Positions 1,064-17,229 of a stretch of 43,531 nt of DNA are shown here, piece by piece. A program made the position numbers and the translations under genes. The notes below the pieces were generated by a model. That model was not told the origin of the DNA, searched no databases, and saw only the letters and a program-made list of their open reading frames with translations. Where the stretch lies: the sequence record DRR723986_647; one strand, 5' to 3'. The stretch's first letter is position 1. Each line of letters begins with the position of its first letter.

Positions 1064-4000
1064 TTATCCGTTGTTGGAACGTGACAGCTCAACCCACAAC
1101 CCGCTATCATGGATAAGCACAAGCATGTCGGTGGACAGGTCCATTGTGAAATCACCGTTCAAGGCAATCGTAGCGCTATCCTTAACAACAACAGTATTGC
1201 TATCCGTTGCTGCTCTGAGCACTAAAATATCTCCGTTGTTGCCGCCATTTATGGTGGTTAAGTCGTCCGTGCTGCCGCTTTCAACGGCGATACGGTGAAA
1301 GCTTTTAGAAACAGTTACAGCCCCACTAGATATAGTGAGCGTTTCAACGCCTCCTAAAGATAACTTACCTTCAAGGTTTAATGACTTGTCTTCCTTGATC
1401 TCCGCAGCAAGTGCAAGACCCTCTGAGACATTCCGCACCCAAAACTGCATATCTGCATCACTGGTGGAAGAGCCGTTAAGTACGTTGATACGGGCCATTA
1501 CGCTATCGGCATTGTTAGCAAATTCTACGTTCCCTAGACCACTTCCAGCGGAACCGGCGTTGTTACGCCTTATAGTTATCTTGGCTGCGTTGCTGGCCGC
1601 AGATACCTGTAGGTCAGATATGCGGATGGCGGATGTATTGTTAAAGTCCCAATAGTCCGCACTGTGGTCCCAATGCAACCTATCGGTGGAGCCTGTTCTT
1701 ATTAATATATCATTAGCTTGAATGCTGTGCGTACTTCCGTAGAGGATTATATTTGCCCCGGTGGTGTCAGTACCTGAGTAGATATCAAGAGCGCTAGAGT
1801 TACTATCCCCGTGTATGGCTGGGACTGTTGTGGTGCCACTGAACTCTACATTTCCGCTGTTATCGACACCAATAGCGGTCGTTGATCCTATCTTTAGGTT
1901 AAATAATCCATCGCCAGCGCTCTCGCTATTTGATGTGAACTCGATAGCCGCTGCAAGAGAGCTATTTTGATAATACCCTATTTTGAATAGATCGGGGTCT
2001 CCCTCTTCAATCCCGGCAGCAACATAATCACCCGTTGACCCGCCAAAAAATATGTTCTTAGTTTCAGCTACATGTAAATCACCACTGACGGTCAGATCGC
2101 CGTTGACAGTCGCGTCGGTTTCTAATGTTGCTAAACTGGAAGTGAACGCCCCAACCACGTTGTTGCCGTTTGCGGCAAGATACAAAGTACCCTCAGAGCG
2201 CAAGGCGAGATCATCGGCCGTCTTGCCAGATATTGCAGCACCCGCGCCGCCACCAATATAGCCGAAAGGTGTGCCATTAGCCTTTAAAAACGTACCTACT
2301 GCGCCGGTATCAGCGCCCGATTTCATTTTAAACCAAACCCCACTAGTAACGTCTATGTCTAGTCTTGTTTTTAAAGTTGTTAGGCCAACCCCAAACTCGG
2401 CGAGATTAACCTCATCATATCGGATAAATGTTTGATCAGCGTAAGTGGTATGCGACTGTCCGTGTATTCTGATATTAGCACCCACAGTTGGGGACGTACC
2501 CCCCGATAACGTCATCTGCGTGGTAGAAGACGATTGGAATACAGAATTTAATTCAGAAATACTAGATACAACAAGGCGGCCAGCCATGGTCCACACTGAA
2601 CCGCTATCATCCCATCTCAGCCTTTGCGTAGTGCCTGACCTGAACAATATATCATTAGCTGTGGTGGCGTGGTTTTCTCCATAAAGTACTAAATTACCAC
2701 CGCTATCACCGTCCGTGCCGCCAGCTAGGATAAGCTGCACGGCATTGTTACCTCTAACTATAGAGGGTACACCGCTAATAGCGTTAGAATTGTAATTCCA
2801 TATAGACAGGCTAGCATCCCAAAGCAGCTTGGTATCAGACCCTTCTCGGAAGTTAATGTCTCCAGCGGTACCGGCGTACGCACTCCCACTAAATATAACA
2901 TTGCCGCCATCATTAGTGGCATCACCCCCGGCTAGCTGTATCTGAGCATTCGAACTGTTTCGAATCATCCCTGCACCGCTGGTCTTTATAAGCCCCGTGA
3001 CTGTCATGTTTCCAGTAGCGCCGTCAATTGCCCATTTATCGACAAAGGCAATGTCCGTGTCGACTGCGCCGCTCGTTGCATATTTATAAGCTATGCCTGT
3101 CGTAGTTTGACTTAGCGTTGTTGCCGTTCCAGTAGACTGTCTTTTCCACGTGCTGCCCGTAGAGAAATAAGCATTTACATTAGACCACCTGTCCACTCCT
3201 GTAGCGTTAAACATATCTGAATGTAGAGAGCAATACTGTACCGCGCGGTAACTATTGTGCCATGTTTCTGCGCCAGCATTGAATAACAACACTCTTCCTG
3301 TGCTGTCGAAGTCCAAGTCGCTGGAACCTGTTATATTTAGTCTGCCAGACATAGATAAGGAAGTAATACCTTCAACAGCGAGTGTGGTGAAACTCCATGA
3401 ACCGCCTGAATGGTTATAAAACAACTTGTTCGTTGAACCTGCCCTCAAAGCAATATCAGAAGCCTGTGTAGCATGAGCGCTAGGATAGAGAACTATGTTT
3501 GCACCAGCACCGACACTTGTATCTGACCCTAAGACAATACCGCCTGTACTATTGTTACTAAGAATGCTTCCGGCGACTGCTATATTACCGGCAGTTTCGA
3601 TATTCCCAAGCGCATCAAGGGTGAGATTCTCAACCGCACCGCTACCACGCAACACAAGATTATCAGCATTACCGTTAGCCTTGATAATAGCCTTGTTTGT
3701 GTCCCATGAAAGTTCACCACCTGCTGCAGAAGGGTTCCATGCAACAACACCGTCATCATTAACATAAAACCGCCGCGCACCGGCGCCGTGAACCTCAAAC
3801 TGTTTGTCATTTAACGAACTGCCTATACTCATCCCTGCGTCCACCGTAACACCGGCCCCCGGCGCAACCTCAGAGATCACATCGGCCTTAATATTGGGGT
3901 CCAGCAGAAAGTCCGCCGTCGCCGCACAAAACACCAATGCATTGCCAGACAAATCGATAGCACCAGGGCTGATTTTGTCATAAACCCCGTCCACCAAGGT

Positions 4001-4213
4001 TTCACCAACAGATGTTCGTTCCAGCGTATCTGTCGCCACTAACGTGCCATTGCCAATTTCATAATTATCACCGTCCTCAATCACATAGGTAACGGTGTCT
4101 CCCACGGAAAAGGCATCCGCAAATGTAACGTGGGCAGCAACAGCACCTACCAGGGTAATGTCGCCAGTGCCGGTCGTCAGCGTTACTTCTCGCACTCTGT
4201 TTGCAAGCGTCAT
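1064..4213 (-). CDS. Phage fibre/spike protein with about five internal repeats
   Basis: N-terminal LANRVREVTLTTGTGDITL.GA virion-attachment-type motif; Gly/Ser/Thr-rich beta composition; repeated GxN(I/V/L)x(L/I/F)xG/P..H...AxD(I)xxRxGxxx(K/R)LxW units; fibre-tip-like C-terminus (WVELSRSNN). Likely start ATG 4213 (RBS AAGGA); the track starts at 4228. Confidence 0.75.
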   Translation of the reverse strand: MTLANRVREVTLTTGTGDITLVGAVAAHVTFADAFSVGDTVTYVIEDGDNYEIGNGTLVATDTLERTSVGETLVDGVYDKISPGAIDLSGNALVFCAATADFLLDPNIKADVISEVAPGAGVTVDAGMSIGSSLNDKQFEVHGAGARRFYVNDDGVVAWNPSAAGGELSWDTNKAIIKANGNADNLVLRGSGAVENLTLDALGNIETAGNIAVAGSILSNNSTGGIVLGSDTSVGAGANIVLYPSAHATQASDIALRAGSTNKLFYNHSGGSWSFTTLAVEGITSLSMSGRLNITGSSDLDFDSTGRVLLFNAGAETWHNSYRAVQYCSLHSDMFNATGVDRWSNVNAYFSTGSTWKRQSTGTATTLSQTTTGIAYKYATSGAVDTDIAFVDKWAIDGATGNMTVTGLIKTSGAGMIRNSSNAQIQLAGGDATNDGGNVIFSGSAYAGTAGDINFREGSDTKLLWDASLSIWNYNSNAISGVPSIVRGNNAVQLILAGGTDGDSGGNLVLYGENHATTANDILFRSGTTQRLRWDDSGSVWTMAGRLVVSSISELNSVFQSSSTTQMTLSGGTSPTVGANIRIHGQSHTTYADQTFIRYDEVNLAEFGVGLTTLKTRLDIDVTSGVWFKMKSGADTGAVGTFLKANGTPFGYIGGGAGAAISGKTADDLALRSEGTLYLAANGNNVVGAFTSSLATLETDATVNGDLTVSGDLHVAETKNIFFGGSTGDYVAAGIEEGDPDLFKIGYYQNSSLAAAIEFTSNSESAGDGLFNLKIGSTTAIGVDNSGNVEFSGTTTVPAIHGDSNSSALDIYSGTDTTGANIILYGSTHSIQANDILIRTGSTDRLHWDHSADYWDFNNTSAIRISDLQVSAASNAAKITIRRNNAGSAGSGLGNVEFANNADSVMARINVLNGSSTSDADMQFWVRNVSEGLALAAEIKEDKSLNLEGKLSLGGVETLTISSGAVTVSKSFHRIAVESGSTDDLTTINGGNNGDILVLRAATDSNTVVVKDSATIALNGDFTMDLSTDMLVLIHDSGLWVELSRSNNG

Positions 4214-4253
4214 CCAGCAATCCTTCATGAAATCAAAATGGCAAATTTGGGCA

Positions 4254-4308: not shown

Positions 4309-5397
4309 TTACGCTGCAAACTCCAACAGCTTAATCGCGTCTGCATTTACAACGGCGCCGCCCACCCGCTTAGTGGCATAGAACAACACATTTGGTTTGT
4401 TGGTGTATGGGTCGCGCAGCACGCGCGTGCCGGTGCGCTCTACAATGGTGTAACCACGCTCGAAGTTACCGAAAGCAACCGAAAGCGAACCTGCCGCCAT
4501 ATCGGGCATATCTTCCGCTTCCACGACCGGGTAACCCAGCAACATGTCAGGCTGACCTTCAATCAAGCCTGGGCGCCAGATGAAATTGCCGTCTGTGTCT
4601 TTCATCTTGCGAATTTCAGCCAACGTCGCGCTGTTCATCACGAACTTTGCACCCTGCCGGTACCGGCTACCTAGTGCATGCACCAAGTCGACCAGAATGT
4701 CGGAAGGGTCAGAGCCGGGAAAACCACCATCAACGCCCGTTGTTACCTTGCCAATCGCAGCTTCAGTCAAAAAGCCTTTGGGCTTATTCACACCGTCACC
4801 GTCAATTACCGCTGCGCCTTCCTGGGCGGCAAACTCTTCTGCCACTTCTTCGGTCAGCCATGCTTCGGCGTCAAACTGCATGTCGTCCAGTGCGCGCTGG
4901 GTTGCAGCAGCGTTGGCGTAAATTTCGCCGGGTGTGATCGCAACTTCGATTAGCGACGGCGTTGCGGTATCACCGCGCGCATCTTCCTCGCCCACCCAGC
5001 CAGAAGCCGTACCGCCTGTGTTCACCAACCTCGTATATTTTGACGTCTCAATGGTTTTAACTTTACAAATTGAGCGCATGGGCGACAGATCACGCAGTTG
5101 CTTTTCAATCTCGCTGTCAATCACTGTGGGCACAGCAAAGCCGCCGTCACCGCCAGTTGCGGTTGAAAGACCTTTGGCCTCCAGGTCTTTCAACAGGCTG
5201 TCATCACCTTTGGTGATAAAGCCGTTTAGAAATGCGTGCTTATGCTCAAGCGCATCGGCGCATATGGCACTGCCGGCGTCGCCCGGGCGGGCCATTTTTG
5301 TTTCCATTGCATCCAGTCTGTCTTTCAGGCCCAGGATGCCACTTTCTGCCGCGTCGGTGTAATCATCGATCGCAGTCTTTAGGTCAGTCATTTCCAT
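4309..5397 (-). CDS. HK97-family major capsid protein (RcGTA-like)
   Basis: Motifs LEAKGLSTATGGDGGFAVP, ASGWVGE, GDGVNKPKGFL, LLGYPVVEAEDMPD, FGNFERGY and RDPYTNKPNVLFYATKRVGG are typical of alphaproteobacterial GTA/HK97 capsids. Confidence 0.95.
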   Translation of the reverse strand: MEMTDLKTAIDDYTDAAESGILGLKDRLDAMETKMARPGDAGSAICADALEHKHAFLNGFITKGDDSLLKDLEAKGLSTATGGDGGFAVPTVIDSEIEKQLRDLSPMRSICKVKTIETSKYTRLVNTGGTASGWVGEEDARGDTATPSLIEVAITPGEIYANAAATQRALDDMQFDAEAWLTEEVAEEFAAQEGAAVIDGDGVNKPKGFLTEAAIGKVTTGVDGGFPGSDPSDILVDLVHALGSRYRQGAKFVMNSATLAEIRKMKDTDGNFIWRPGLIEGQPDMLLGYPVVEAEDMPDMAAGSLSVAFGNFERGYTIVERTGTRVLRDPYTNKPNVLFYATKRVGGAVVNADAIKLLEFAA

Positions 5398-5549
5398 GAC
5401 ATTTGTCCTTCTCTAAATTGTTAAGGGGTGCTGGCAAACGCCAGCGATCAAAAAGGCCAAATGCCTGCCTCGCGCAGACCAAGTGGACCGTGGGTCAGGC
5501 CGCAAACCCCGGCATCACGCCGGATGGATTGGACCAAAGTTAAATAATA

Positions 5550-5582
5550 GAAAACCCGACCACCATTTCTGGTGTCGGGCTT
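5550..5582 (-). terminator. Intrinsic terminator after the ubiquitin-like gene
   Basis: Minus strand AAGCCCGACACCAGAAATGGTGGTCGGGTTTTC: hairpin plus short U-tract. Confidence 0.6.
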
Positions 5583-5631
5583 GCAATGTTTAGTCGAATA
5601 ATTTTTTACCCTATTTACAAAAAACTACCTA

Positions 5632-5940
5632 CTACCTGCATTGATTTGAAGACGGCACCTCTTTTATCCGCAAAACCGACCCCCGGCCTAAATATAACTC
5701 AGAAAGTGTTTTGTCATCATCCAGGGGACCACCGCCCTGTGTTAAGTGAAACTTTCGTATTTCAAGACCAAGCTTGGCAGATACCTGTTGCTTTAAAGCG
5801 CAAATCATCATCGTATCGAGATCAATATTCTTGAATTGAAACTGCTCACCGTTATACCGAACGTGTACATAATCCGTCGCCGCCAGCGCTGGGACAAATC
5901 CCACGCACAACAAAACTATCGCTAAAATCAACCGTTTCAT
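5632..5940 (-). CDS. Secreted ubiquitin-like (beta-grasp) protein
   Basis: Sec signal MKRLILAIVLLCVGFVPALA. The mature segment LKQQVSAKLGLEIRKFHLTQGGGPLDDDKTLSELYLGRGSVLRI aligns by eye with ubiquitin [44 protein letters not shown]. No C-terminal GG. RBS GGGAG. Confidence 0.8.
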   Translation of the reverse strand: MKRLILAIVLLCVGFVPALAATDYVHVRYNGEQFQFKNIDLDTMMICALKQQVSAKLGLEIRKFHLTQGGGPLDDDKTLSELYLGRGSVLRIKEVPSSNQCR

Positions 5941-6035
5941 ATCGCACGCTCCCCTTGTTCATTCGTGTAGGGGTTATACTATGGCAGGCAAAATGAATTG
6001 TAAATAAACGCTTTATTAGTTAAACACTAAGGCAT

Positions 6036-6050
6036 GTTCTGTTTATGTTC
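6036..6050. promoter_or_regulatory. Alphaproteobacterial LexA (SOS) box GTTC-N7-GTTC
   Basis: GTTC-TGTTTAT-GTTC is an exact consensus match in the AT-rich divergent promoter region, about 40 bp upstream of ORF 6091. Confidence 0.7.
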
Positions 6051-6090
6051 TTTGTAGCGGAGCTACGTTGTCCAAACACGGGGTACCATT

Positions 6091-6795
6091 ATGACAAATC
6101 GTAAAATATTCATTACTGGCATGCTCGCTGGCATTATATTAACGGTAGTGATAGGCTCAATTGGCGAAGACACACCCTACAGCCAAACATACCTACGGCT
6201 GAGTAATGATGACCCTTCGCTTGCGTTGCCAACGTTTGCAAAAAACATCGAAGTTATCGCACCTGTTTTTAGTCAAGAGAAAGCCGCTAATACAGCCTAT
6301 ATTTCAATATACACCGCTCGGCCCTTGCTTGATATCACGCCGACCGAAGTTGAGAGCGTTTGCATCCGAAACGCCTTACTCGATTTTGACGGTGCTGAAA
6401 AATGGGAAGCCGAAGTTAATCTCACAGACCCAGACGCAATCGCCAAAGCCCACGTCGATGCGGGTACATTCCACAACAACGAACGTCAGCCAATCGGAGT
6501 TGTTCGATTTGGCCAACTCAATGACTACGAACAAAATGTCAAAATTGGTTCTTTCTTTGAGCGGACTAACCCCTCTATTGAAGAAGCACAAAATCAGCGT
6601 GACAAAATCAGCGTTTTTTTCAACGAGATGGATGTCCCAAACATGTCTCTTATTTTATTGCAGCTTGACGGTACCGGCGTCATCAAGCCTTGTGATTCCT
6701 CAATGGACATGACCGTCTACGACCGATGGCGTCATCAATGGACCAGTGGCCAAGGCTACAACGGAGTTGCGCTAGCGCCCGGGTATAAATACTGA
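6091..6795 (+). CDS. Hypothetical N-terminally anchored/exported protein
   Basis: 234-aa ORF with N-terminal hydrophobic helix and two Cys; GGGG upstream of ATG. No family recognised. Confidence 0.75.
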   Translation: MTNRKIFITGMLAGIILTVVIGSIGEDTPYSQTYLRLSNDDPSLALPTFAKNIEVIAPVFSQEKAANTAYISIYTARPLLDITPTEVESVCIRNALLDFDGAEKWEAEVNLTDPDAIAKAHVDAGTFHNNERQPIGVVRFGQLNDYEQNVKIGSFFERTNPSIEEAQNQRDKISVFFNEMDVPNMSLILLQLDGTGVIKPCDSSMDMTVYDRWRHQWTSGQGYNGVALAPGYKY

Positions 6796-6801
6796 GAAAA
6801 A

Positions 6802-6915
6802 ATGGCACAAGTAAACAAAGAAAAATACGAAAGTCGCTACAAGTGGAACAACCATATGCGTGGCATTGTGATGGGTATACTCCTCACCGTTATCTACTAT
6901 GAGTTTATCGCGTAG
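6802..6915 (+). CDS. Small single-TM protein (37 aa)
   Basis: My translation: MAQVNKEKYESRYKWNNHMRGIVMGILLTVIYYEFIA. It begins 6 nt after the upstream stop and is below the ORF-track length cut-off. Confidence 0.45.
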   Translation: MAQVNKEKYESRYKWNNHMRGIVMGILLTVIYYEFIA

Positions 6916-6943
6916 GGATCCCTGTACTGTTGTTGGTGATAAA

Positions 6944-8047
6944 CTAACGTACGGAAACAGTAAATCGGCCAGCACGCTGCTTCAGATTAGCAATTGAAGG
7001 GTCTTCATGTTCATGATGAACCAACGTTGCGCTTGTACTATCCAGAACTAATTGCTCGGGAAATTGCTCTATCCAGTCTCTTGGGTTTAAAGGATTAAAT
7101 TCGGGAGGTCGTCCTCGATCAACGGAACGAGATGTATTTTGATCGGTCAATTTGATCTGATGCCGTATAGGACGTCGACCCGAAAAATCATAATAGTTAA
7201 TGAAACAAATGAACCGTGCCCAAGACGGTGCATCTATTTGAAATGTTACACGCCCCAATCTAACAGGCCCTATAGTAAAGTTTTTTTCTTTTCCCGGAAA
7301 AACAGTCACGCTCCTAAAGGGGGTTCTGACAGACTCAAATAAGTTAAGCAGAGACTCAATGCTTCGTTTTGCTTCCAGTCTGCCTTGACGGTGTTGCACC
7401 GATGTAATCAAATCAGCTATTTCTACACGATCAAAATTGCTCTTAAACCCTTTGGCCGTAATCGCCTTGGCGCGGCTGCGGGAAAAGCCCTGCTCGCGCA
7501 GGAAACGCTCGAAGGTTCGAGGGTCGTTAATGTCTCTGGTCTCGAAATTCGTGTCCATGCTTTCCGTCCTTTGTTTCACTGTCTGCACACGCGCTAACTC
7601 GTTGGCCGGGAAGGTCACCAGGGACACTTCCATCAAATCTGCGCGCTTAATAGTTCGGGTGCCCGCGGCGCTGTTGCGCATTGCCTCTTTGGTTACAAAA
7701 CCAATCGAAAGCCCGTTAAGGGCACCCATTTTTAAAAGTTCATAGGCCTCCGCGCCCCGTCCAGACTGTGCCAGCCGCCCTTTGACAAACAGGCCGCGCT
7801 CGTCTTCGCGCACCACATCAAACCGGCCAATGGGCTCTTTGGCATTGTGCTGCCACAACAGGGCAGGCAGGCGGGCTTTTAGGCTTTCCATGAACGCGCC
7901 CTTGGCCACTACATCACCGTCGCGGTCGGTGTTGCCGAACACCGCGCCGTAACCTTCAAACTCGCCGGGTAAGCCGCCCGCTTTCACCTCAAGCGGAAGG
8001 TCAATAACCGATCGTTCACTAGTGTTCAGCACGTTTTGCATCGGCAT
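6944..8047 (-). CDS. HK97-family prohead protease (peptidase S78) with an extra 140-aa C-terminal domain
   Basis: FEGYGAVFGNTDRDGDVVAKGAF, LLWQH, PIGRF, GLSIGF and LMEVSLVTFPAN identify the protease. After RLEAK (aa 227) comes an unrelated AT-rich domain. Confidence 0.9.
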   Translation of the reverse strand: MPMQNVLNTSERSVIDLPLEVKAGGLPGEFEGYGAVFGNTDRDGDVVAKGAFMESLKARLPALLWQHNAKEPIGRFDVVREDERGLFVKGRLAQSGRGAEAYELLKMGALNGLSIGFVTKEAMRNSAAGTRTIKRADLMEVSLVTFPANELARVQTVKQRTESMDTNFETRDINDPRTFERFLREQGFSRSRAKAITAKGFKSNFDRVEIADLITSVQHRQGRLEAKRSIESLLNLFESVRTPFRSVTVFPGKEKNFTIGPVRLGRVTFQIDAPSWARFICFINYYDFSGRRPIRHQIKLTDQNTSRSVDRGRPPEFNPLNPRDWIEQFPEQLVLDSTSATLVHHEHEDPSIANLKQRAGRFTVSVR

Positions 8048-8139: not shown

Positions 8140-8346
8140 TTAGAGCAGTTTAAGTTCACCCGCGCTCATGCGGCCCCTGCGGTCTTCAACCAGCTCGTAT
8201 GAAATTGCCTGATCGTCGTCCAAGCCCCGAAGGCCTGCTTCTTCTAGTGCTGAGATATGAACAAAAACATCATCGCCGCCTGCTTCAGGCTTAATGAAGC
8301 CAAAACCCTTTGTCGCGTTAAACCATTTTACCGTACCGTTCGCCAT
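8140..8346 (-). CDS. cspA: Cold-shock protein
   Basis: GTVKWFNATKGFGFI and DVFVHISAL (RNP1/RNP2 motifs). Confidence 0.95.
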   Translation of the reverse strand: MANGTVKWFNATKGFGFIKPEAGGDDVFVHISALEEAGLRGLDDDQAISYELVEDRRGRMSAGELKLL

Positions 8347-8574
8347 TGTAGTAAACCCCTATCGTGCATATTAAAGTTATCATCAGAAGGCGAAACCGTA
8401 AGGCCGCTTTTGTCGAATTTCAAGAGCAAGTCCGGGTAAGCAAACCCCCAAAAGATTGTTTTTCCGCGCGCATCGTTGTAATGATGCCGCAAGGGGCACA
8501 AATCTATAAAAACCCTATAAAGAGCCTATGAAGGCCTTTACGGCCATAAAGTCGACCGCGACAGGATCGAACCA

Positions 8575-8826
8575 ATGAACGAACAACTAGAGCAGAAATC
8601 ACCCAAATACCGCTTTTGGTTAACGGTAATTGCGATGGTGATGTCAGGTGTATTTGCCCTTATGGGCCTTGGCAGTTTTTCGTTGGGTCAAGGCCTTGCA
8701 TCGGCCCCGGAAAACATCGACCCCGATGCCACTATCCTGACCTTCAATTTCATCGGTTCAGTCTTGCTTTTGATGGTACCCGCCTGCCTGTTGCTCGCCT
8801 ATATGGTGCGCCCTGACGGGAAATAG
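8575..8826 (+). CDS. Small 2-TM hypothetical membrane protein
   Basis: 83 aa with two hydrophobic helices; RBS AGGA. Confidence 0.65.
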   Translation: MNEQLEQKSPKYRFWLTVIAMVMSGVFALMGLGSFSLGQGLASAPENIDPDATILTFNFIGSVLLLMVPACLLLAYMVRPDGK

Positions 8827-8839
8827 AAAGTCTTAAATT

Positions 8840-9265
8840 TTACCTACTAGATATCTTGCTTTCACGCTTAATAATAGCAAGTTGGTTGCTTCGTCTTCTC
8901 CAAAAATAGGCGCCGAGCCCCCAAGTGATAACAACAAGACCAATACTTGCCAATTTCATCCAGAGAATTAGAGAATGAGCTACCTCACTTAATGTGGCGG
9001 TGCCCACGAACTCAATATTAAGAGCAATAAAAATTGAAAGAAAGAAAGAGCCTACGGAAAAACTTACATTGGAGATAAAGTTCCAAGCCGTTAAATTCTC
9101 GAGCTCAGATTCCATTACTCCATACACAGTCGGAGTCCTTTCAACATAAAGTGGTTTTACAGTTGAGCCATCTATACTCGGTGAAAAAGAATGAACTAGT
9201 TCCGAATCTTCTACCTGTTCAACGGAACCATCATGATCATCACTATTACTTTCCCCATCATCCAT
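8840..9265 (-). CDS. Hypothetical 2-TM membrane protein with acidic N-terminus
   Basis: 141 aa with two C-terminal TM segments; AT-rich; start overlaps the upstream stop (TAATG). Confidence 0.7.
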   Translation of the reverse strand: MDDGESNSDDHDGSVEQVEDSELVHSFSPSIDGSTVKPLYVERTPTVYGVMESELENLTAWNFISNVSFSVGSFFLSIFIALNIEFVGTATLSEVAHSLILWMKLASIGLVVITWGLGAYFWRRRSNQLAIIKRESKISSR

Positions 9266-9522
9266 TACTTGGACTCCTCTTTTAGAAGGCCCATTACAAC
9301 TGTATTAAAATACCTAGTTGCGCCACAATTAGTGCACACGACCATCACTTGCGGGTATGAAGGCCCACCTATTTGTAGCGCCCCGTCAGAAGCCACAGTT
9401 GGTTGCACAATATGGTCAGCAATGGTGTGACTTGAAGAGCCACATTCTCTACAGGCACCTGCTCGCGGTGCGCGCTTTTGCAAGAAGTCAGCTATTTTAT
9501 CTTTATCGGCCTTACTCAACAT
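9265..9522 (-). CDS. Small Zn-ribbon protein (CxxC...CxxC)
   Basis: CRECG and CTNCG motifs; RBS GGAG; translationally coupled to the downstream membrane gene. Confidence 0.75.
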   Translation of the reverse strand: MLSKADKDKIADFLQKRAPRAGACRECGSSSHTIADHIVQPTVASDGALQIGGPSYPQVMVVCTNCGATRYFNTVVMGLLKEESK

Positions 9523-13250: not shown

Positions 13251-13817
13251 TCAAGCCAGAGCGGATCTGATGGCCTCATGTTCTCCTGCTTGCTTCTCAG
13301 GCACACCAAACCCAATATCAATATAGGACAAACTGCGCAGAACCGAACTGGCTACGCCGCCATTGTTGCTGTCGTCTAAATCAAATTGCCGACTGGGCAA
13401 CATCAACCCAATGGTGTTCTGGGGTTTGCCGTCAGGATTATCGACCGGAAAACCCAAGCTGGAAAGCGTATAGCTTTTGCCGCTTTCAAACAGCACATCG
13501 CGCACCACCATGCTGGCGCAGGGCAATGCAAAAACATTTTTGGTAATTTCCATATAAATCGGCGCGTCTTGCGGCGGGCATACATCGAGGTAGTTCATGC
13601 CCGTAATGGCATTGCCCGAGATTTCATCCAGCGACGTACCTACCAGCCGCACAAGCATGTCCGTAGGCGACCGATGCTCCAGAATATACACATAAGGCAA
13701 CAATGTGGGAATTTGGCATGGGTCAAACTGCGAACGCATAGGCAAGCCCCCACCAGCATCAGCCTGCAAGGACTTCCAATATTTTGTAAATTGCTCGAAT
13801 TGGGCCGAAACTATCAT
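13251..13817 (-). CDS. PAS-domain protein (PAS_5/DUF1457 type)
   Basis: YWKSL...LPMRSQFDPCQIPTLLPYVYILE...VRLVGT signature; paralogue of the adjacent gene. Confidence 0.8.
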   Translation of the reverse strand: MIVSAQFEQFTKYWKSLQADAGGGLPMRSQFDPCQIPTLLPYVYILEHRSPTDMLVRLVGTSLDEISGNAITGMNYLDVCPPQDAPIYMEITKNVFALPCASMVVRDVLFESGKSYTLSSLGFPVDNPDGKPQNTIGLMLPSRQFDLDDSNNGGVASSVLRSLSYIDIGFGVPEKQAGEHEAIRSALA

Positions 13818-14024
13818 CTGCGCAAGCCCCTGTTCTAACCCGGTTAGCAAAAAAAGCTTAAATACACTACTACCACATACCGTTCAGCCCACAGGGCCAA
13901 TATGCGGCACATTATCACACACTATTACTGCAAATATAGCATCAAAATCGCAGAAGCAATAACCTTACTATCGCTAAAAATGCAGCGGCAATGGCGGGTA
14001 GAGAATGCCTTCATTTTGGTGTTT

Positions 14025-14606
14025 TTATTGGTTCGGTATTTTGTGCAGCCCCGGTGAAACATGCGGTGCTGATATTTCGGACACCTCCGGCACACCGAAC
14101 CCGATATCAATATATTCCAGGCTGCGCAGCACAGAGCGCGTGACGCCGCCGTTATCCATTTCATCCGCTGCAAAATGTCTGTGGGGTATCATCACACCAA
14201 TACTGTAGGTCAGCGCGCCGTCTTGGTCGGCCATGGGGTAGCCAAGGCTGGAAAGAGTATAATTTTTACCACTTTCAAAGGTTAGGTCCCGTATCACCTT
14301 AGTGGCGCAGGGTAAAAGGCTGCGGTATTTATTAACTTCCTTGTAAAGGGGCACATCTTGAGGGGGACAGAAGTCAAAGAAATTACGCCCCGTATAAGCG
14401 TGAGACGCTATTTCATCCAACGACGTGCCGACAAGGCGCATAATCATTTCATCATCAGATTTATGCTCTAGCAAGTAGACATAGGGCAGCAGGCTGGCAA
14501 TTTGAGCGGGGTTGAGCTGCGACTTTGCCGGAATTGGCCCCTCGGCCGCGGCCTGAAGCCTTTCCCAGTAATCAGTGAATTGTTTGAATTGCGCCGAGAC
14601 AGGCAT
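14025..14606 (-). CDS. PAS-domain protein (PAS_5/DUF1457 type)
   Basis: YWERL...IPAKSQLNPAQIASLLPYVYLLE...MRLVGT; RBS GGGGAG before ATG 14606. Confidence 0.8.
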   Translation of the reverse strand: MPVSAQFKQFTDYWERLQAAAEGPIPAKSQLNPAQIASLLPYVYLLEHKSDDEMIMRLVGTSLDEIASHAYTGRNFFDFCPPQDVPLYKEVNKYRSLLPCATKVIRDLTFESGKNYTLSSLGYPMADQDGALTYSIGVMIPHRHFAADEMDNGGVTRSVLRSLEYIDIGFGVPEVSEISAPHVSPGLHKIPNQ

Positions 14607-14657
14607 AGATGCCAGCTCCCCCTTACGAACCACCCTGCCAGCGAACCCTATCATAAA

Positions 14658-15209
14658 CTAAGCTTGAGCCAAAATAATGCTGGCCAACCAGCGCAGGCCG
14701 TTGTTGTAGCGGCGCTTCATGGTCCAGCGCGACTGCACGCTGTCCAAACTGCGCCGCACTTTCGCCCACGGTATTTTCACCTGCACTTCGCCGTCCTGGT
14801 GCCAACAGGCCCAAAACAACAGCTTTCTATCGCCGGGGTCGGGTAACAGCTGAAGCAAATCAAGTACGGGCTGCATCTGATCAATTTCCTGCGGCGAAAG
14901 CCGCACACTCCGGCGCGCTTGCAGGGCTGTCATAGCGGGCGGCGCATAGGTGCCAGCGTCTGCTGCTGTGTCTGGCCACATCATGGTACGCATGTGCAAA
15001 TACCCTTTTTCGCGGTCTGGCATACGCCTAAGTGTCCATGCCGCCGCCACCAAGCGCGCCTCAATACGTTCAACCATTTTATCAACGGCCTGCGCGTGCT
15101 CGCCTTTTTCACATCGGCTTTCTTTCAATAGCTTTGCTGCGGCGGCCGTGGCTGGCTTGTGGGCTTTATGAGGGTGGTTTTTCTTCGTCAGGGGAATTGA
15201 TTGATGCAT
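14658..15209 (-). CDS. DUF6362-like phage transcriptional regulator (putative late activator/antiterminator)
   Basis: IEARLVAAAWTLRRMPD...WP...SPQEIDQM...LL...IPWAKV...SRWTMKRRY..GL pattern with a C-terminal HTH. Start 15209 inferred from RBS AAAGGA. Confidence 0.65.
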   Translation of the reverse strand: MHQSIPLTKKNHPHKAHKPATAAAAKLLKESRCEKGEHAQAVDKMVERIEARLVAAAWTLRRMPDREKGYLHMRTMMWPDTAADAGTYAPPAMTALQARRSVRLSPQEIDQMQPVLDLLQLLPDPGDRKLLFWACWHQDGEVQVKIPWAKVRRSLDSVQSRWTMKRRYNNGLRWLASIILAQA

Positions 15210-15294
15210 GAAGTAAGCGTCCTTTCTTCGAGTGTGATCGTTTTTTTGGGGAGGGGGTAGTTTGTCGTTGAACCAGTGCTGCTGTTTAACGCCG

Positions 15295-16347
15295 TCATAG
15301 CCAGCCCCATGCTGGCCCGTAACGGTCACGTACTTTTCTTGGGATGTGGCGGGTGGCGGTCAGGCGCGGGTTTGCCCCCAACCCTCGTTCGCGGAACGTT
15401 GGATGGTCAGTGGGGATGAACCAATGACGCGCCAGATACTCTCCGCGAAACCTGTTGGTAGGGTCACCCAACAAACTTTGCCAATGCGCTGTGTCGGTGG
15501 GGTCAAAATCTTTTTTGCTGGCCTGGAGTTTTTTGCGCGCAGGTTTTCGCTCGCGGCCTGCCTGCTCTGCTTTTTGCCGGTTAACGGAAGCCTCCAGCAC
15601 AGCTTCGCGAAAATAGCCCAAACTGTGCGGTGCGCGGCCGGTGCGGCCAATTTCGCGCGCCGCAACCGCCGTAATGGTTGGAATGGCATCCAACGATAGG
15701 TCAACGCCTGCCGCCCACCATAAATGCAGCACCGTATCATCCAATAGCGTTCCTTCGGGGCACACATCGCTCATGCTAGTGCGCCACTGGCTTTGCTGGT
15801 CAACCGAGAGAGGTTGATCCGCTAAGGCGGGCCGATCAGCTATAGCGGGCTGGCCACTGCCCGACTTTTTCACCAATAGGGTATCAACGGCAGGCGGCTG
15901 CTTTTGTTTGGATTTGGTTTTGGTTGCTTGTCCACTTGTGGGGTTGGTCGCTGGCGTTTTGCTACCTGTTTCGCTAAATGAGAATTCTGATCCATTTGCC
16001 GTTTTACTTTTAGCGGCCTTTGCCCTGCCCCCACGCGCACCGTTAGCCTTGTTGCGGGCAACTCTGGCCGCCACGTCGCTGTAGACTGCCTGCAATTTCT
16101 TCTGCCGCCACACACCGTCTTCCAGGTTGAAAAACTGTGCCAATACCGGCCTCAAACGTCGCCATTTGGTGGGGCTTAACCCCGCGATACGGGCAAGGGT
16201 TTTGTCATTGTCTTCCAAAGCGCATCCGGTACTGCGCCACGCACACATCAATAGCAGCAGATAAGCCCCGTGCTCTTCCGTGGTTAGGTGCCGGGTGTCT
16301 GCCAAATAAGCGTCAGTGAAAAGTGGCAAGGCCGGATAAAGCGCCAT
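15295..16347 (-). CDS. YdaU/DUF1376-family phage replication-initiator-like protein
   Basis: LPLFTDAYLADTRHLTTEEHGAYLLLLM..W and NGARGGRAK signatures; RBS AGGAG. Confidence 0.8.
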   Translation of the reverse strand: MALYPALPLFTDAYLADTRHLTTEEHGAYLLLLMCAWRSTGCALEDNDKTLARIAGLSPTKWRRLRPVLAQFFNLEDGVWRQKKLQAVYSDVAARVARNKANGARGGRAKAAKSKTANGSEFSFSETGSKTPATNPTSGQATKTKSKQKQPPAVDTLLVKKSGSGQPAIADRPALADQPLSVDQQSQWRTSMSDVCPEGTLLDDTVLHLWWAAGVDLSLDAIPTITAVAAREIGRTGRAPHSLGYFREAVLEASVNRQKAEQAGRERKPARKKLQASKKDFDPTDTAHWQSLLGDPTNRFRGEYLARHWFIPTDHPTFRERGLGANPRLTATRHIPRKVRDRYGPAWGWL

Positions 16348-16384
16348 AGTGTCTCCTGTGAATTACGAATTGATTTTCATTTTA

Positions 16385-16454
16385 TTTCGTTTTTCGTAAT
16401 TTATGAAGCGAAATAATTTTTAAAATATCTTGCAATTAATTACTAAATTCGTAA
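16385..16454. promoter_or_regulatory. Divergent promoter region with two operators
   Basis: TTTCG-TTTTT-CGTAA (16385-16399) and TTACT-AAATT-CGTAA (16440-16454). TTGCAA at 16430-16435 is -35-like and the repressor ATG lacks an RBS, consistent with a leaderless mRNA. Confidence 0.6.
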
Positions 16455-16464
16455 TAGTAGCTTT

Positions 16465-17229
16465 ATGCCAGCGCAAACTTGGATACGAGCCACCTTGAAA
16501 GAGAGAGGCTTAAAGCTGAAGGATGCCGCGGCGGCGCTTAACATAACGCCGCCGCGCGTGACCGATATTCTCAAGGGTATGCGCGAAGTTCAGGCCGATG
16601 AAATTTTGCCGCTCGCAACCCTCTTGGGCATGACATCAAAGTCATTGCTTGCCAGCCTTGCGAAGGGTGAAAAAACCAATGCCGGACGAGAGCTGGACGG
16701 CCCATCGCTGCAGGTGCTTGGTTCACTCACCGGCACCGGCGATCTGATACCCCTAAGCCCGGACGCCAAGATTAGCAGCGTGCCTGTGCCGCCTGATGCG
16801 GAAAGCAGCGAAGGCCTTTATTGTTACCTGATGGGGGATGACAGCCTTGAGCAGGAAATTCGTCAAGGCTCGTTGATTATTGCCGGTGACCCCCGGGTGC
16901 ATTTCTTCCCGATGGTGCCAGGCGCCATTTTCATTATTGATATGGGCCCAAATAAAGGGGGTAGCTCAAATAAAGAGAGCAGAAAAATAACCGCCCGGCA
17001 ATATTTCAAAAGCCCGAACGGGGAAGACTGGCTGGTGCCTCTGCCCGCCAACCACAACCCGCACTATGAAAGCTGGCGTTTCTCCATGCTACCGGCTGAA
17101 CTGGAAGGCGCCAATGTGGCGGCTATGCCAGGAAGCGGCACGGAAACGCCGGCTCATAAAGTCGTACGCACGACTGACATTGTCGCGGTTGTGATGTGGG
17201 TACATCGGCGCTACACACCTGAAACATAG
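16465..17229 (+). CDS. XRE/CI-like phage repressor (HTH plus degenerate S24-like domain)
   Basis: HTH WIRATLKERGLKLKDAAAALNITPPRVTDILKGMREVQADEI; C-terminal YCYLMGDDSLEQEIRQGSLII resembles S24. Confidence 0.8.
   Translation: MPAQTWIRATLKERGLKLKDAAAALNITPPRVTDILKGMREVQADEILPLATLLGMTSKSLLASLAKGEKTNAGRELDGPSLQVLGSLTGTGDLIPLSPDAKISSVPVPPDAESSEGLYCYLMGDDSLEQEIRQGSLIIAGDPRVHFFPMVPGAIFIIDMGPNKGGSSNKESRKITARQYFKSPNGEDWLVPLPANHNPHYESWRFSMLPAELEGANVAAMPGSGTETPAHKVVRTTDIVAVVMWVHRRYTPET

Follow-up and report, generated by a model that had tools for sequence, protein, structure and literature searches.

A predicted exported ubiquitin-fold protein encoded between the protease and capsid genes of an RcGTA-like cluster in Kordiimonas-like alphaproteobacteria

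What might a ubiquitin-like protein with an export signal do when its gene lies between the prohead protease and capsid genes of a phage-derived cluster? The question is posed by an open reading frame, here called Ubl, in a 43,531-nucleotide stretch of DNA from sequence record DRR723986_647 (the window). An earlier note on this DNA had read the frame as a secreted, eukaryote-like ubiquitin that lacks the C-terminal Gly-Gly and is carried in the manner of a moron, and had named as a parallel the secreted ubiquitin homologue BfUbb of Bacteroides fragilis. In the main texts of the papers that our literature search covered, secreted bacterial ubiquitin homologues come only from Bacteroides (BfUbb and BoUbb).

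The Ubl gene and its signals

Ubl is located between the protease and capsid genes, as the note had it, and a second gene, which we call TM230, diverges from it in the same gap (Table 1). The N-terminus of the Ubl precursor has the makings of a Sec signal peptide, in which a basic n-region (K2, R3) leads into a hydrophobic core of 15 residues and A-L-A precedes the predicted cut; from this layout we infer that the protein is exported. Its C-terminus is SSNQCR rather than GG, and the mature chain contains two cysteines, C47 and C101; a third, C12, is inside the signal peptide. We considered the possibility that Ubl is a lipoprotein and rejected it, because the sequence lacks a lipobox and Cys12 is not kept in the family.

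Table 1. Coordinates of Ubl, its signals and its neighbors in the window
Feature	Coordinates	Strand	Remarks
HK97-type major capsid protein gene	4309..5397	(-)	downstream border of cargo slot
Intrinsic-terminator-like hairpin and U-tract	5542..5581	(-)	~50 nt past the Ubl stop codon, ahead of the capsid gene
Ubl gene	5632..5940	(-)	102-aa precursor plus stop codon; family profile against the window, E = 7e-38
Mature ubiquitin-fold domain	5635..5880	(-)	residues 21-102; Cys47, C-terminal S-x-Q-Cys101
Predicted Sec signal peptide	5881..5940	(-)	residues 1-20, cut after A-L-A; read from sequence; layout common to 36/36 aligned family members
Putative ribosome-binding site AAGGGGAG	5949..5956	(-)	8 nt upstream of the Ubl ATG; from sequence
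Sigma-70-like promoter candidate TTTACA-17-TAGTAT	5976..6004	(-)	9/12 matches; in the 150-bp divergent intergenic region
TM230 gene	6091..6795	(+)	234 aa; divergent from Ubl; N-terminal membrane anchor and ~200-aa extracytoplasmic domain
Prohead protease gene (Peptidase_S78, residues 29-165; long C-terminal extension)	6944..8047	(-)	upstream border of cargo slot

The ribosome-binding site and terminator attributed to the gene by the earlier note were both located; the terminator hairpin carries a 1-nt bulge and was hence overlooked by a simple terminator scan. We regard the promoter candidate as weak, because the number of promoter-like sites in the divergent intergenic region is equal to that expected from shuffled sequence. 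The G+C content of the Ubl insert is about 43%, versus 52-62% in the core genes of the cluster.

Resemblance to ubiquitin and conservation in the Ubl family

Ubl matches the Pfam ubiquitin family PF00240 with an E-value of 3.5e-5 and a score of 23.9 bits, which is 1.5 bits below the gathering cut-off of 25.4 bits, and a PF00240 search of the genomes of three relatives gave 22.3-22.6 bits in two of them. Phmmer searches of the PDB with the single Ubl sequence hit ISG15 (E = 1.3e-4) and ubiquitin (E = 9e-4), and the profile of the Ubl family hit single-domain ISG15 with an E-value of 2.3e-7. When the family alignment was supplied, AlphaFold2 produced a model of Ubl with a mean pLDDT of 88.3 (94-98 in the mature domain), superseding one made from the single sequence with no alignment (pLDDT 50.8). 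A Foldseek search of the PDB with the alignment-based model gave at least 494 matches at E <= 1e-3; the best among those listed was the C-domain of ISG15 (6ffa_B; TM 0.85, rmsd 1.2 Å, 32% identity), after which came ubiquitin, NEDD8 and SUMO. Superposition on ISG15, ubiquitin and NEDD8 gave TM scores of 0.82-0.86 and rmsd values of 1.2-1.5 Å, and sequence identity to ubiquitin/ISG15-type proteins is 20-32%. The resemblance of Ubl to ubiquitin exceeds chance by far. In a protein atlas all leads for Ubl scored below 0.9, the top one being a Bacteroidota cluster labeled 'putative Ubiquitin' (0.82), and neither Ubl nor TM230 had a match in PHROGs, NCBIfam or PADLOC.

Pfam, phmmer, AlphaFold2 and Foldseek agree with the earlier reading of a ubiquitin-type domain behind the signal peptide, and the comparison with ubiquitin that the note had proposed returned a beta-grasp fold. 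We consider it highly probable that Ubl is an exported ubiquitin-family beta-grasp domain with a tail that lacks Gly-Gly and ends in cysteine. The description 'eukaryote-like' is borne out for the fold but not for the sequence, which is no close copy of ubiquitin at 20-32% identity and in which the position matching Ile44 is variable.

The proteins related to Ubl comprise a small family, with members of about 100 amino acids and an overall identity of 27-59%. They were found by an exhaustive homologue search; a word-based search gave one relative only. In an alignment of 36 members, Cys47 and Cys101 are each kept in all 36, and the tail motif S-x-Q-C is nearly as constant (S98 in 34/36, Q100 in 35/36). 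The C-terminal Cys closes the chain in 13 members, and one to three residues come after it in the other 23; no member has Gly at its C-terminus and none ends in Gly-Gly, in agreement with what the note had said of the tail and of the two cysteines in the mature chain. Core positions matching ubiquitin Lys27, Leu43, Leu50, Thr55 and Leu56 are kept in 35, 34, 33, 27 and 30 of the 36, respectively. The position matching Ile44 is mostly polar (K, R, T or H in 25/36), and those matching Lys48, Lys63 and Arg72 are not conserved in the family; we take the Ile44 patch and these three residues to be functional residues of ubiquitin.

As it has no C-terminal Gly, Ubl is predicted to be incapable of conjugation. 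For the same reason, and on account of its export signal, we rejected its assignment to the ThiS/MoaD proteins or to the conjugatable Ubls of defense systems. No E1, E2, DUB or JAB Pfam domain was found among the 29 open reading frames of the window that were scanned, and PADLOC was likewise empty. In the alignment-based model the tail has a pLDDT of 96 over residues 91-100 and of 89 over residues 101-102, as would be expected if Cys101 pins it, and a Cys47-Cys101 disulfide, formed in the periplasm, probably holds the tail against the helix at its first turn.

An RcGTA-like cluster with a cargo slot

The genes around Ubl form an RcGTA-like head-tail cluster that Kordiimonas-like alphaproteobacteria inherit vertically and carry at a conserved position in the chromosome. 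Their order is terS, terL, portal, protease, capsid, adaptor, head closure, tail terminator and a TP901-1-type tail tube. In our sample of 201 genomes from the order, 131 have one copy of the capsid gene, and the genes flanking the cluster are syntenic between genomes; we therefore regard it as an RcGTA-like cluster and not a mobile prophage. The part of Kogay et al. 2019 (PMC6821227) that we drew on reports an RcGTA-like cluster in 110 of 169 Sphingomonadales genomes, and our cluster is like these 'ancient prophage' clusters in gene order, near-equal prevalence, syntenic flanks and G+C-richer core genes. It is unlike the canonical arrangement, in which the protease gene is next to the capsid gene (as in our loci L053, L055 and L056), in that cargo of up to 12 kb separates the two genes here. 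The literature that our search covered, seen in part, contained no report of exported ubiquitin-like cargo in RcGTA-like clusters.

Ubl is an accessory cargo of this cluster. Its profile matched 21 of the 201 genomes, one of these matches being weak and probably spurious. In 32 genomes of the sample the capsid is 60% or more identical to that of the window; Ubl is present in 20 of these and absent in 12, and there was no match in genomes of the sample with a capsid below 60%. In the nearest relative (94% capsid identity) the gap between protease and capsid genes is 570 bp and contains neither Ubl nor TM230. Ubl is thus dispensable for the cluster, since it is missing from 12 of 32 close clusters, including the nearest, and from all those with more distant capsids. 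Where it occurs its position is regular: it is directly upstream of the capsid gene on the same strand in 16 of 22 loci, and inside the cluster in 19 of 22. Identities of Ubl and capsid between loci are correlated (Spearman 0.56, n = 18). Outside the order, 400 other genomes sampled across the Alphaproteobacteria yielded weak matches in two, with no Cys pair and not near GTA genes. A search of genome contigs found nothing with the single protein and two loci with a narrower family alignment.

Ubl is not alone in its slot. TM230 is a periplasm-facing domain with two cysteines (Cys91 and Cys201, both invariant) and an N-terminal anchor in the inner membrane; it has no Pfam match, and the protein atlas gave nothing usable for it. 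A diverging TM230 gene is present beside each of the 20 cluster-embedded Ubl genes (the window and 19 other loci), at an estimated start-to-start spacing of 70-136 bp in 15 and 197-544 bp in five; the two genes form an accessory cassette in the protease-capsid gap. There are one to four TM230 paralogues per locus, and TM230 also occurs in five loci without Ubl. The pairing is not obligate, because two orphan copies of Ubl, which sit at ordinary places in the chromosome, lack a TM230 gene within 9 kb. Across 16 loci the mean pairwise distance is 0.63 for Ubl, 0.82 for TM230 and 0.29 for the capsid. The partial Mantel correlation between Ubl and TM230 distances, given those of the capsid, is 0.36 at these 16 loci, a value reached in 10 of 2000 permutations and to which near-identical pairs of loci (L026/L029) contribute; physical linkage alone may explain it. 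A complex prediction for the periplasmic domain of TM230 with mature Ubl, made without alignments, scored 0.00 and speaks neither for nor against an interaction.

In lambdoid and HK97-like phages, a moron is an extra gene with its own promoter and terminator inside the late operon. Ubl is like a moron in lying between head genes, in having its own ribosome-binding site, weak promoter candidate and terminator, and in its lower G+C content and variable presence. It is unlike one in that its carrier is fixed in the chromosome and the insert is a conserved pair of divergently oriented genes whose sequences have changed together with those of the cluster. The comparison with a moron made in the earlier note therefore holds for the accessory status, signals and composition of the gene, but not for its carrier, which is RcGTA-like rather than mobile, nor for a gene standing by itself, Ubl being paired with TM230.

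Relation to BfUbb and possible functions

BfUbb kills related strains by binding a PPIase after import by a TonB-dependent route. In the portions of the published reports that we drew on, BfUbb begins with a signal sequence, has Cys in place of the C-terminal Gly, and shares 63% identity with human ubiquitin, as if acquired by recent transfer (PMC3352274); its target is a periplasmic PPIase, its action is antibacterial, and its intramolecular disulfide is essential for both target binding and killing (PMC11901371, PMC11467351). The traits for which the earlier note had invoked it are all found in these sources. As far as they go, Ubl has in common with BfUbb and BoUbb (of B. fragilis and B. 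ovatus) a signal sequence, a ubiquitin fold and a small single domain. It is also like BfUbb in having no Gly-Gly, in combining a Cys that lies at the C-terminus, or just before it, with a second Cys (the disulfide being established in BfUbb and predicted here), and in being an accessory gene found only in some strains. Unlike BfUbb, with its 63% identity to human ubiquitin, the Ubl family has 20-32% identity to any ubiquitin-like protein; the Ubl tail is two residues longer, with the S-x-Q-C motif; and Ubl comes from Alphaproteobacteria, in a GTA-like cluster with TM230 as its neighbor. The 'Putative ubiquitin' chains of PDB entries 8hm1-3, which we take to be BfUbb, had an E-value of about 0.7 in the phmmer search with the single Ubl sequence, and they were absent from the 60 matches to the Ubl profile at E <= 0.01. 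By sequence comparison, then, Ubl has no specific kinship to BfUbb, which points to a separate origin.

Our leading interpretation, tentative and less likely than not, is by analogy with BfUbb: Ubl may be a secreted toxin or binding protein, stapled by a disulfide, that has TM230 as a partner or as an immunity protein. Mature Ubl would act by non-covalent binding beyond the cytoplasm, possibly as an antibacterial protein that diffuses to related cells and inactivates a target in their periplasm, and TM230 would be a membrane-tethered protector or partner in the producer; we infer the disulfide, the binding of TM230 and the toxicity alike. For a toxin-immunity pair speak the immunity-like features of TM230 (its paralogues and its presence in loci without Ubl) and the fast divergence of both proteins. 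Against it are the orphan copies of Ubl without TM230, the divergent orientation, which is unusual in toxin-immunity pairs, and the fact that no homologue has a studied function. Searches of PADLOC, of sequenced phages and plasmids (tblastn), and of the viral contigs of IMG/VR (with the single protein or the narrower family alignment) gave no match for Ubl, which also counts against such a pair. The confinement of the cassette to one slot of one cluster, with which it diverges, is a pattern that a role bound to the GTA-like particles, and not a mobile weapon, would explain as well.

The pair might instead protect the envelope: Ubl and TM230, sitting in the envelope of the carrier, would block the entry of phage or GTA DNA or tail proteins, or mask a receptor, as periplasmic and membrane superinfection-exclusion proteins of phages do. 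Both proteins are predicted to face the periplasm, and a phage-derived cluster, fast evolution, expansion of paralogues and variation in presence are typical traits of an arms race; yet neither protein is like a known exclusion or defense protein (none in PADLOC, none in PHROGs), and exclusion genes are usually on mobile phages, whereas the cluster of Ubl is fixed in the chromosome. We judge this explanation unlikely, if still worth serious attention. Rather less credence goes to a role as an accessory of the GTA particle, in which the pair, expressed with the head genes, would aid particle release, stability or reception from the periplasmic side. The conserved position by the capsid gene (directly upstream in 16/22 loci, within the cluster in 19/22) and the co-divergence with the capsid favor such a role, but Ubl is missing from 12 of 32 close clusters, the nearest among them, and wherever the capsid is below 60%; a terminator stands between it and the capsid gene; two copies are outside any cluster; and virion parts assemble in the cytoplasm, whereas Ubl has an export signal. 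As a virion decoration protein we rejected it, being exported and dispensable.

An effector directed at eukaryotes, a secreted ubiquitin look-alike that disturbs ubiquitin pathways in a host, a grazer or an alga, is more improbable again. PF00240, to which Ubl belongs, is a eukaryote-dominated family; BfUbb binds human E1 in vitro through its C-terminal Cys, according to the part of the report that we drew on (PMC3352274); and one exported relative, the Cys-less L061, is in an AT-rich, symbiont-like genome. But identity to ubiquitin and ISG15 is low (20-32%) and the Ile44, Lys48, Lys63 and Arg72 positions are not kept; because of this low identity and the variable, mostly polar Ile44 equivalent, interference with E1 or DUBs and mimicry of host ubiquitin are unlikely. 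Moreover, a Sec signal alone gives no delivery into eukaryotic cytosol, and the relatives that bear a name belong to uncultured marine Kordiimonas, for which nothing suggests life with a host. The carriers of Ubl are free-living marine bacteria, and some relatives of these carriers have been cultured. That Ubl is a decaying or functionless remnant merely resembling ubiquitin is scarcely credible: one relative (L002) has its frame disrupted in the signal-peptide region, but 20 of 21 solid genomic matches have an intact frame, the invariant features of the family, at an identity of 27-59%, include the Cys pair, core residues and the signal peptide, and the fold is predicted with confidence.

A narrower version of the stapled-toxin interpretation, which we consider speculative and unlikely, is that the RcGTA-like cluster carries a weapon for kin discrimination, in which stapled Ubl, freed by lysis of GTA-producing cells or continually by secretion, would poison a periplasmic target in neighbors that lack a matching TM230. 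If so, gene transfer and survival would be restricted to kin, ubiquitin-fold toxins ending in Cys would have arisen independently in Bacteroides and in marine Alphaproteobacteria, and this would be the first cargo function tied to a gene transfer agent.

Ubl represents a second, independent family of ubiquitin homologues that are predicted to be secreted, in a different phylum from that of Bacteroides. It departs from ubiquitin in the same three ways as BfUbb: it carries an export signal, lacks Gly-Gly, and has a partner Cys for the one at its C-terminus. The occurrence of these departures in two independent families suggests a general route by which the ubiquitin fold is made into an extracytoplasmic binder. 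RcGTA-like clusters, usually deemed compact and conserved, hold a cargo slot for fast-evolving exported proteins, and this slot bears on the roles that GTA-like particles and their producers have in populations.

The Ubl gene and its protein family

Each checkable point in the earlier note's description of Ubl, the exported ubiquitin-fold protein, was borne out: the ORF, the signal peptide, the SSNQCR end, the two cysteines of the mature chain, the RBS, the terminator and the flanking genes. The sequence of residues 1-20 suggests a Sec signal peptide: K2 and R3 are basic, the hydrophobic core spans 15 residues, and A-L-A precedes the predicted cut. C12 lies within this peptide, and C47 and C101 are in the mature chain. 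The hairpin 3' of the gene was overlooked by a simple terminator scan because it has a one-base bulge. Promoter-like sites in the region around the weak site 5' of the gene are no more numerous than in shuffled sequence.

Features of the Ubl gene and its surroundings in the window
Feature	Position	Strand	Remarks
Ubl ORF	5632-5940	-	102 codons, ATG start; read from sequence
AAGGGGAG	8 nt 5' of Ubl ATG	-	sequence
Weak promoter-like site TTTACA-17-TAGTAT	6004..5976	-	consensus match
G+C-rich hairpin, then U-tract	5581-5542	-	~50 nt 3' of Ubl stop, ahead of capsid gene
TM230, window copy	6091-6795	+	C91 and C201
Peptidase_S78 prohead protease	6944-8047	-	Pfam; 367 aa; neighbour of Ubl
HK97-type capsid protein	4309-5397	-	Pfam; neighbour of Ubl
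Gly/Ser/Thr-rich protein	1064-4228	-	1054 aa; between capsid gene and head-tail adaptor (adaptor off window)
Second cargo slot	8140-9522		between portal and protease genes
Cold-shock-domain protein	8140-8346		in second cargo slot
Genes 5' of small terminase	13251-17229		two PAS_5 proteins, 223-aa protein, DUF1376, HTH_3 protein

Ubl is ubiquitin-like by several independent measures. The Pfam ubiquitin family PF00240 matches residues 27-90 (E = 3.5e-5; 23.9 bits, just below the 25.4-bit cut-off). In a phmmer search of all PDB sequences the top matches are all ubiquitin-like (ISG15, E = 1.3e-4; ubiquitin, 9e-4; then NEDD8, UBL4A and BAG6), and with the family profile as query, single-domain ISG15 improves to 2.3e-7. 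AlphaFold2 gave a poor model without an alignment (pLDDT 50.8), and a model of pLDDT 88.3 with the 36-member family alignment (mature domain 94-98; tail 89-96). A Foldseek search with the Ubl model returned at least 494 PDB matches at E ≤ 1e-3, the first 50 listed all being ubiquitin-like folds and the best being the ISG15 C-terminal domain (6ffa_B; TM 0.85, rmsd 1.2 Å, 32% identity). Among viral models the matches are ubiquitins of eukaryotic viruses, with two uncultured phage proteins among the first 50 listed.

A word-based search found a single relative of Ubl, with 59% identity. An exhaustive search of 1.84 billion representatives (E ≤ 1e-3) matched 102 proteins: 35 full-length matches of about 100 aa, one 72-aa protein (P0016) covering Ubl residues 1-70, and 66 proteins of 159-2629 aa. 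All eight long matches scanned are arrays of 3-18 PF00240 domains. We aligned the window Ubl with the 35 short full-length matches. All 36 members have a signal peptide. The positions C47, F64 and C101 do not vary at all, and K50, A54, L66, L73, S98 and Q100 are nearly invariant. The tail motif is S-x-Q-C, its Cys being terminal in 13 members and followed by one residue in 21, by two in one and by three in one; no member ends in Gly. Names were sought for ten clusters of the family, and none is named. In the alignment of the profile to ubiquitin, the positions matching K27, L43, L50, T55 and L56 are kept in 35, 34, 33, 27 and 30 of the 36 members, respectively. Cys47 aligns with ubiquitin residue 24, in the first turn of the helix, and Cys101 falls two residues past the position of Gly76.

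A GTA-like carrier with cargo slots

No match to Ubl was found among sequenced phages, plasmids and IMG/VR contigs. A narrower family alignment gave two loci, both in uncultured Kordiimonas sp. genomes, and wider searches were centred on one of these two genomes, with samples of 201 genomes from its order and 400 from its class. The Ubl profile matches 21 of the 201, one match (genome G155; E = 4.8e-4, signal-peptide region only) probably being spurious. In the class sample just two other genomes have weak matches, without the Cys pair and without GTA (gene transfer agent) genes nearby.

We fetched about 9 kb on either side of the matches and mapped 13 window proteins onto the 22 loci. At 16 of them the Ubl and capsid genes share a strand, Ubl lying directly 5'; at two others (L030, L031) the capsid gene follows only after 6.6-8.5 kb, and at L043 the contig runs out before it. 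Two loci (L033, L035) hold orphan Ubl copies in ordinary chromosomal surroundings without head genes, and the remaining locus is the probably spurious match. Compared with its window counterpart, the capsid is 61-89% identical, the portal 62-79% and the terminase 55-79%, but Ubl just 27-59%.

The window capsid has a homologue in 131 of the 201 genomes, a single one in 122 of these, with 50-94% identity in nearly all. Downstream genes in a relative encode a head-tail adaptor, a head closure protein, a tail terminator and a TP901-1-type tube protein. Gene order and distribution match RcGTA-like head-tail clusters; Ubl is carried by such a GTA-like cluster rather than by a mobile prophage. Kogay et al. 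2019 (PMC6821227) report that 110 of 169 Sphingomonadales genomes have RcGTA-like clusters, and they reinterpret a Sphingomonadales 'conserved prophage' as RcGTA-like; we infer that the order sampled here is Sphingomonadales.

In 32 genomes the capsid shares at least 60% identity with that of the window; 20 of them have Ubl, and the 201-genome sample holds no Ubl match outside these 32. A profile search of the fetched loci of the 12 others found no Ubl. At the closest relative of all (L047; capsid 94%) the protease-capsid gap is 570 bp, and at L053, L055 and L056 the two genes are adjacent, as in canonical clusters. Since Ubl is present in some related clusters and absent from others, it was rightly described as inserted. 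The protease-capsid slot is a hot spot for cargo, ranging from <100 bp to ~12 kb. Core genes have a G+C content of 52-62%, and cargo stretches (5601-6400 included) 40-49%.

Several other features of these loci were recorded. The second cargo slot also encodes 83-aa and 141-aa membrane proteins and an 85-aa zinc-ribbon protein, and each of its genes is found in only some related clusters. In the prohead protease the S78 domain ends near residue 165 and is followed by a 200-residue C-terminal extension, only partly conserved in relatives and lower in G+C (42-48%, 6801-7600) than the protease domain (59%, 7601-8000). Same-strand cargo-slot ORFs at L001 (7020-7541, 8370-9089), L002 (6988-7518, 8371-9078) and L039 (1400-1972) start with a motif found after the S78 domain (window protease residues ~150-225) and alternate with genes for TM230, a membrane-anchored protein; this arrangement suggests that a 'protease 3-prime part plus TM230' unit was duplicated in tandem, and the common motif may be a segment that targets the capsid or is scaffold-like. 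The 1054-aa protein has no match in Pfam, PHROG or PADLOC. Across loci its first ~130 residues share 57-76% identity; beyond them sequence and length vary greatly (846-1415 aa in relatives). The protein is possibly a head fibre or spike whose anchor is conserved. The genes 5' of the small terminase are syntenic in many loci and may be part of cluster regulation rather than host backbone. Both orphan Ubl copies lie 1-2 kb from a PF00144 serine-hydrolase (beta-lactamase-family) gene (L033, 6301-9312; L035, 6690-9309), which could be coincidence or a second recurrent context. One uncultured Kordiimonas genome has a Ubl gene (L002, 9954-10303) whose reading frame is broken in the signal-peptide region, with one TGA in the match: either a pseudogene or an assembly error. 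Finally, L061 (8998-9297), and likewise L062, encodes a 99-aa ubiquitin-like protein with a signal peptide and without the Cys pair; at L061 this gene and one for a 589-aa exported protein are flanked by nuoI on one side and by a duplicated piece of nuoI on the other, and the alphaproteobacterial genome is AT-rich and 2.5 Mb in size. This is a different kind of exported Ubl, in what is apparently a symbiont.

The divergent partner gene TM230

By clustering every ORF between the protease and capsid genes at 28 loci we found the TM230 family, proteins of 210-300 aa encoded on the opposite strand, with an N-terminal membrane anchor and an extracytoplasmic domain containing exactly two invariant cysteines. 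Its two BLAST clusters are homologous (hhalign probability 98.8%), and it has no match in Pfam, PHROGs, PADLOC or the protein atlas. A divergent TM230 gene stands beside all 20 cluster-embedded Ubl genes (the window and 19 loci), at an estimated start-to-start spacing of 70-136 bp in 15 and 197-544 bp in five. There are one to four TM230 copies per locus. TM230 occurs without Ubl at five loci (L048-L051, L058), seven loci have neither gene, and no TM230 lies within 9 kb of either orphan Ubl copy. Across 16 loci the mean pairwise distance is 0.63 for Ubl, 0.82 for TM230 and 0.29 for the capsid. With the capsid signal removed, Ubl and TM230 distances remain correlated (partial Mantel r = 0.36, reached by 10 of 2000 permutations), a value that physical linkage alone could produce and to which two near-identical loci contribute.

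Possible roles and known relatives

Ubl is an exported-looking, non-conjugatable protein of the ubiquitin family with a family-wide Cys pair; it is accessory, fast-evolving and paired with a periplasm-facing membrane protein. A Cys47-Cys101 disulfide would form, and Ubl would act outside the cytoplasm through non-covalent binding. The reading we rank first, tentatively and by analogy (probability roughly 0.35-0.4), is that Ubl is a secreted antibacterial binder and TM230 its tethered protector. Such an antagonism-immunity module fits because of the TM230 paralogue arrays, the TM230 loci without Ubl, the pattern of presence and absence, and the rapid divergence. For colicin M, a periplasmic immunity protein that is anchored in the membrane and bears a disulfide is known. 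Counting against a toxin and protector are the orphan Ubl copies without TM230, the divergent gene orientation and the lack of specific kinship to BfUbb, the ubiquitin homologue of Bacteroides fragilis. The long residence of the cassette in one slot of one cluster would suit two other roles for the pair, envelope exclusion, which we consider doubtful, and a part in the GTA particle cycle, which seems less likely still.

Ubiquitin interacts mainly through I44 and the lysines K48 and K63. In 25 of the 36 members of the Ubl family the I44 position holds K, R, T or H, and the positions of K48, K63 and R72 are unconserved, which makes mimicry of host ubiquitin very improbable. The observation in the earlier note is confirmed and its interpretation, a non-conjugatable ubiquitin mimic acting on competitors or a eukaryotic host, partly supported: non-conjugatable holds, with no Gly-terminated member, and host mimicry is disfavoured.

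BfUbb is the one studied precedent for Ubl. It carries a signal sequence and ends in Cys in place of Gly (PMC3352274); both killing and the binding of its target, a periplasmic PPIase, depend on an intramolecular disulfide, and a SusCD transporter serves for import (PMC11467351, PMC11901371). These papers agree with the earlier account of BfUbb as secreted, GG-less, disulfide-containing and antibacterial. Ubl may resemble the BfUbb group in its manner of working, but it is not a member: it does not have the high identity to ubiquitin that defines the group, and does not match BfUbb preferentially. Within the PF00240 superfamily it is a divergent member that does not qualify as conjugatable. 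The likeness to a phage moron holds for its anatomy (an inserted gene with its own RBS and terminator) but not for its carrier, a GTA-like cluster rather than a mobile prophage. In the literature searched, which included PMC10883770 and PMC6821227, we found no report of exported ubiquitin-like cargo in GTA clusters or of GTA clusters in Kordiimonas. With the Ubl family there is a second, independent family of ubiquitin-fold proteins that are exported and Cys-terminated; it has a conserved partner, and its setting in a GTA-like cluster is both unexpected and experimentally tractable.
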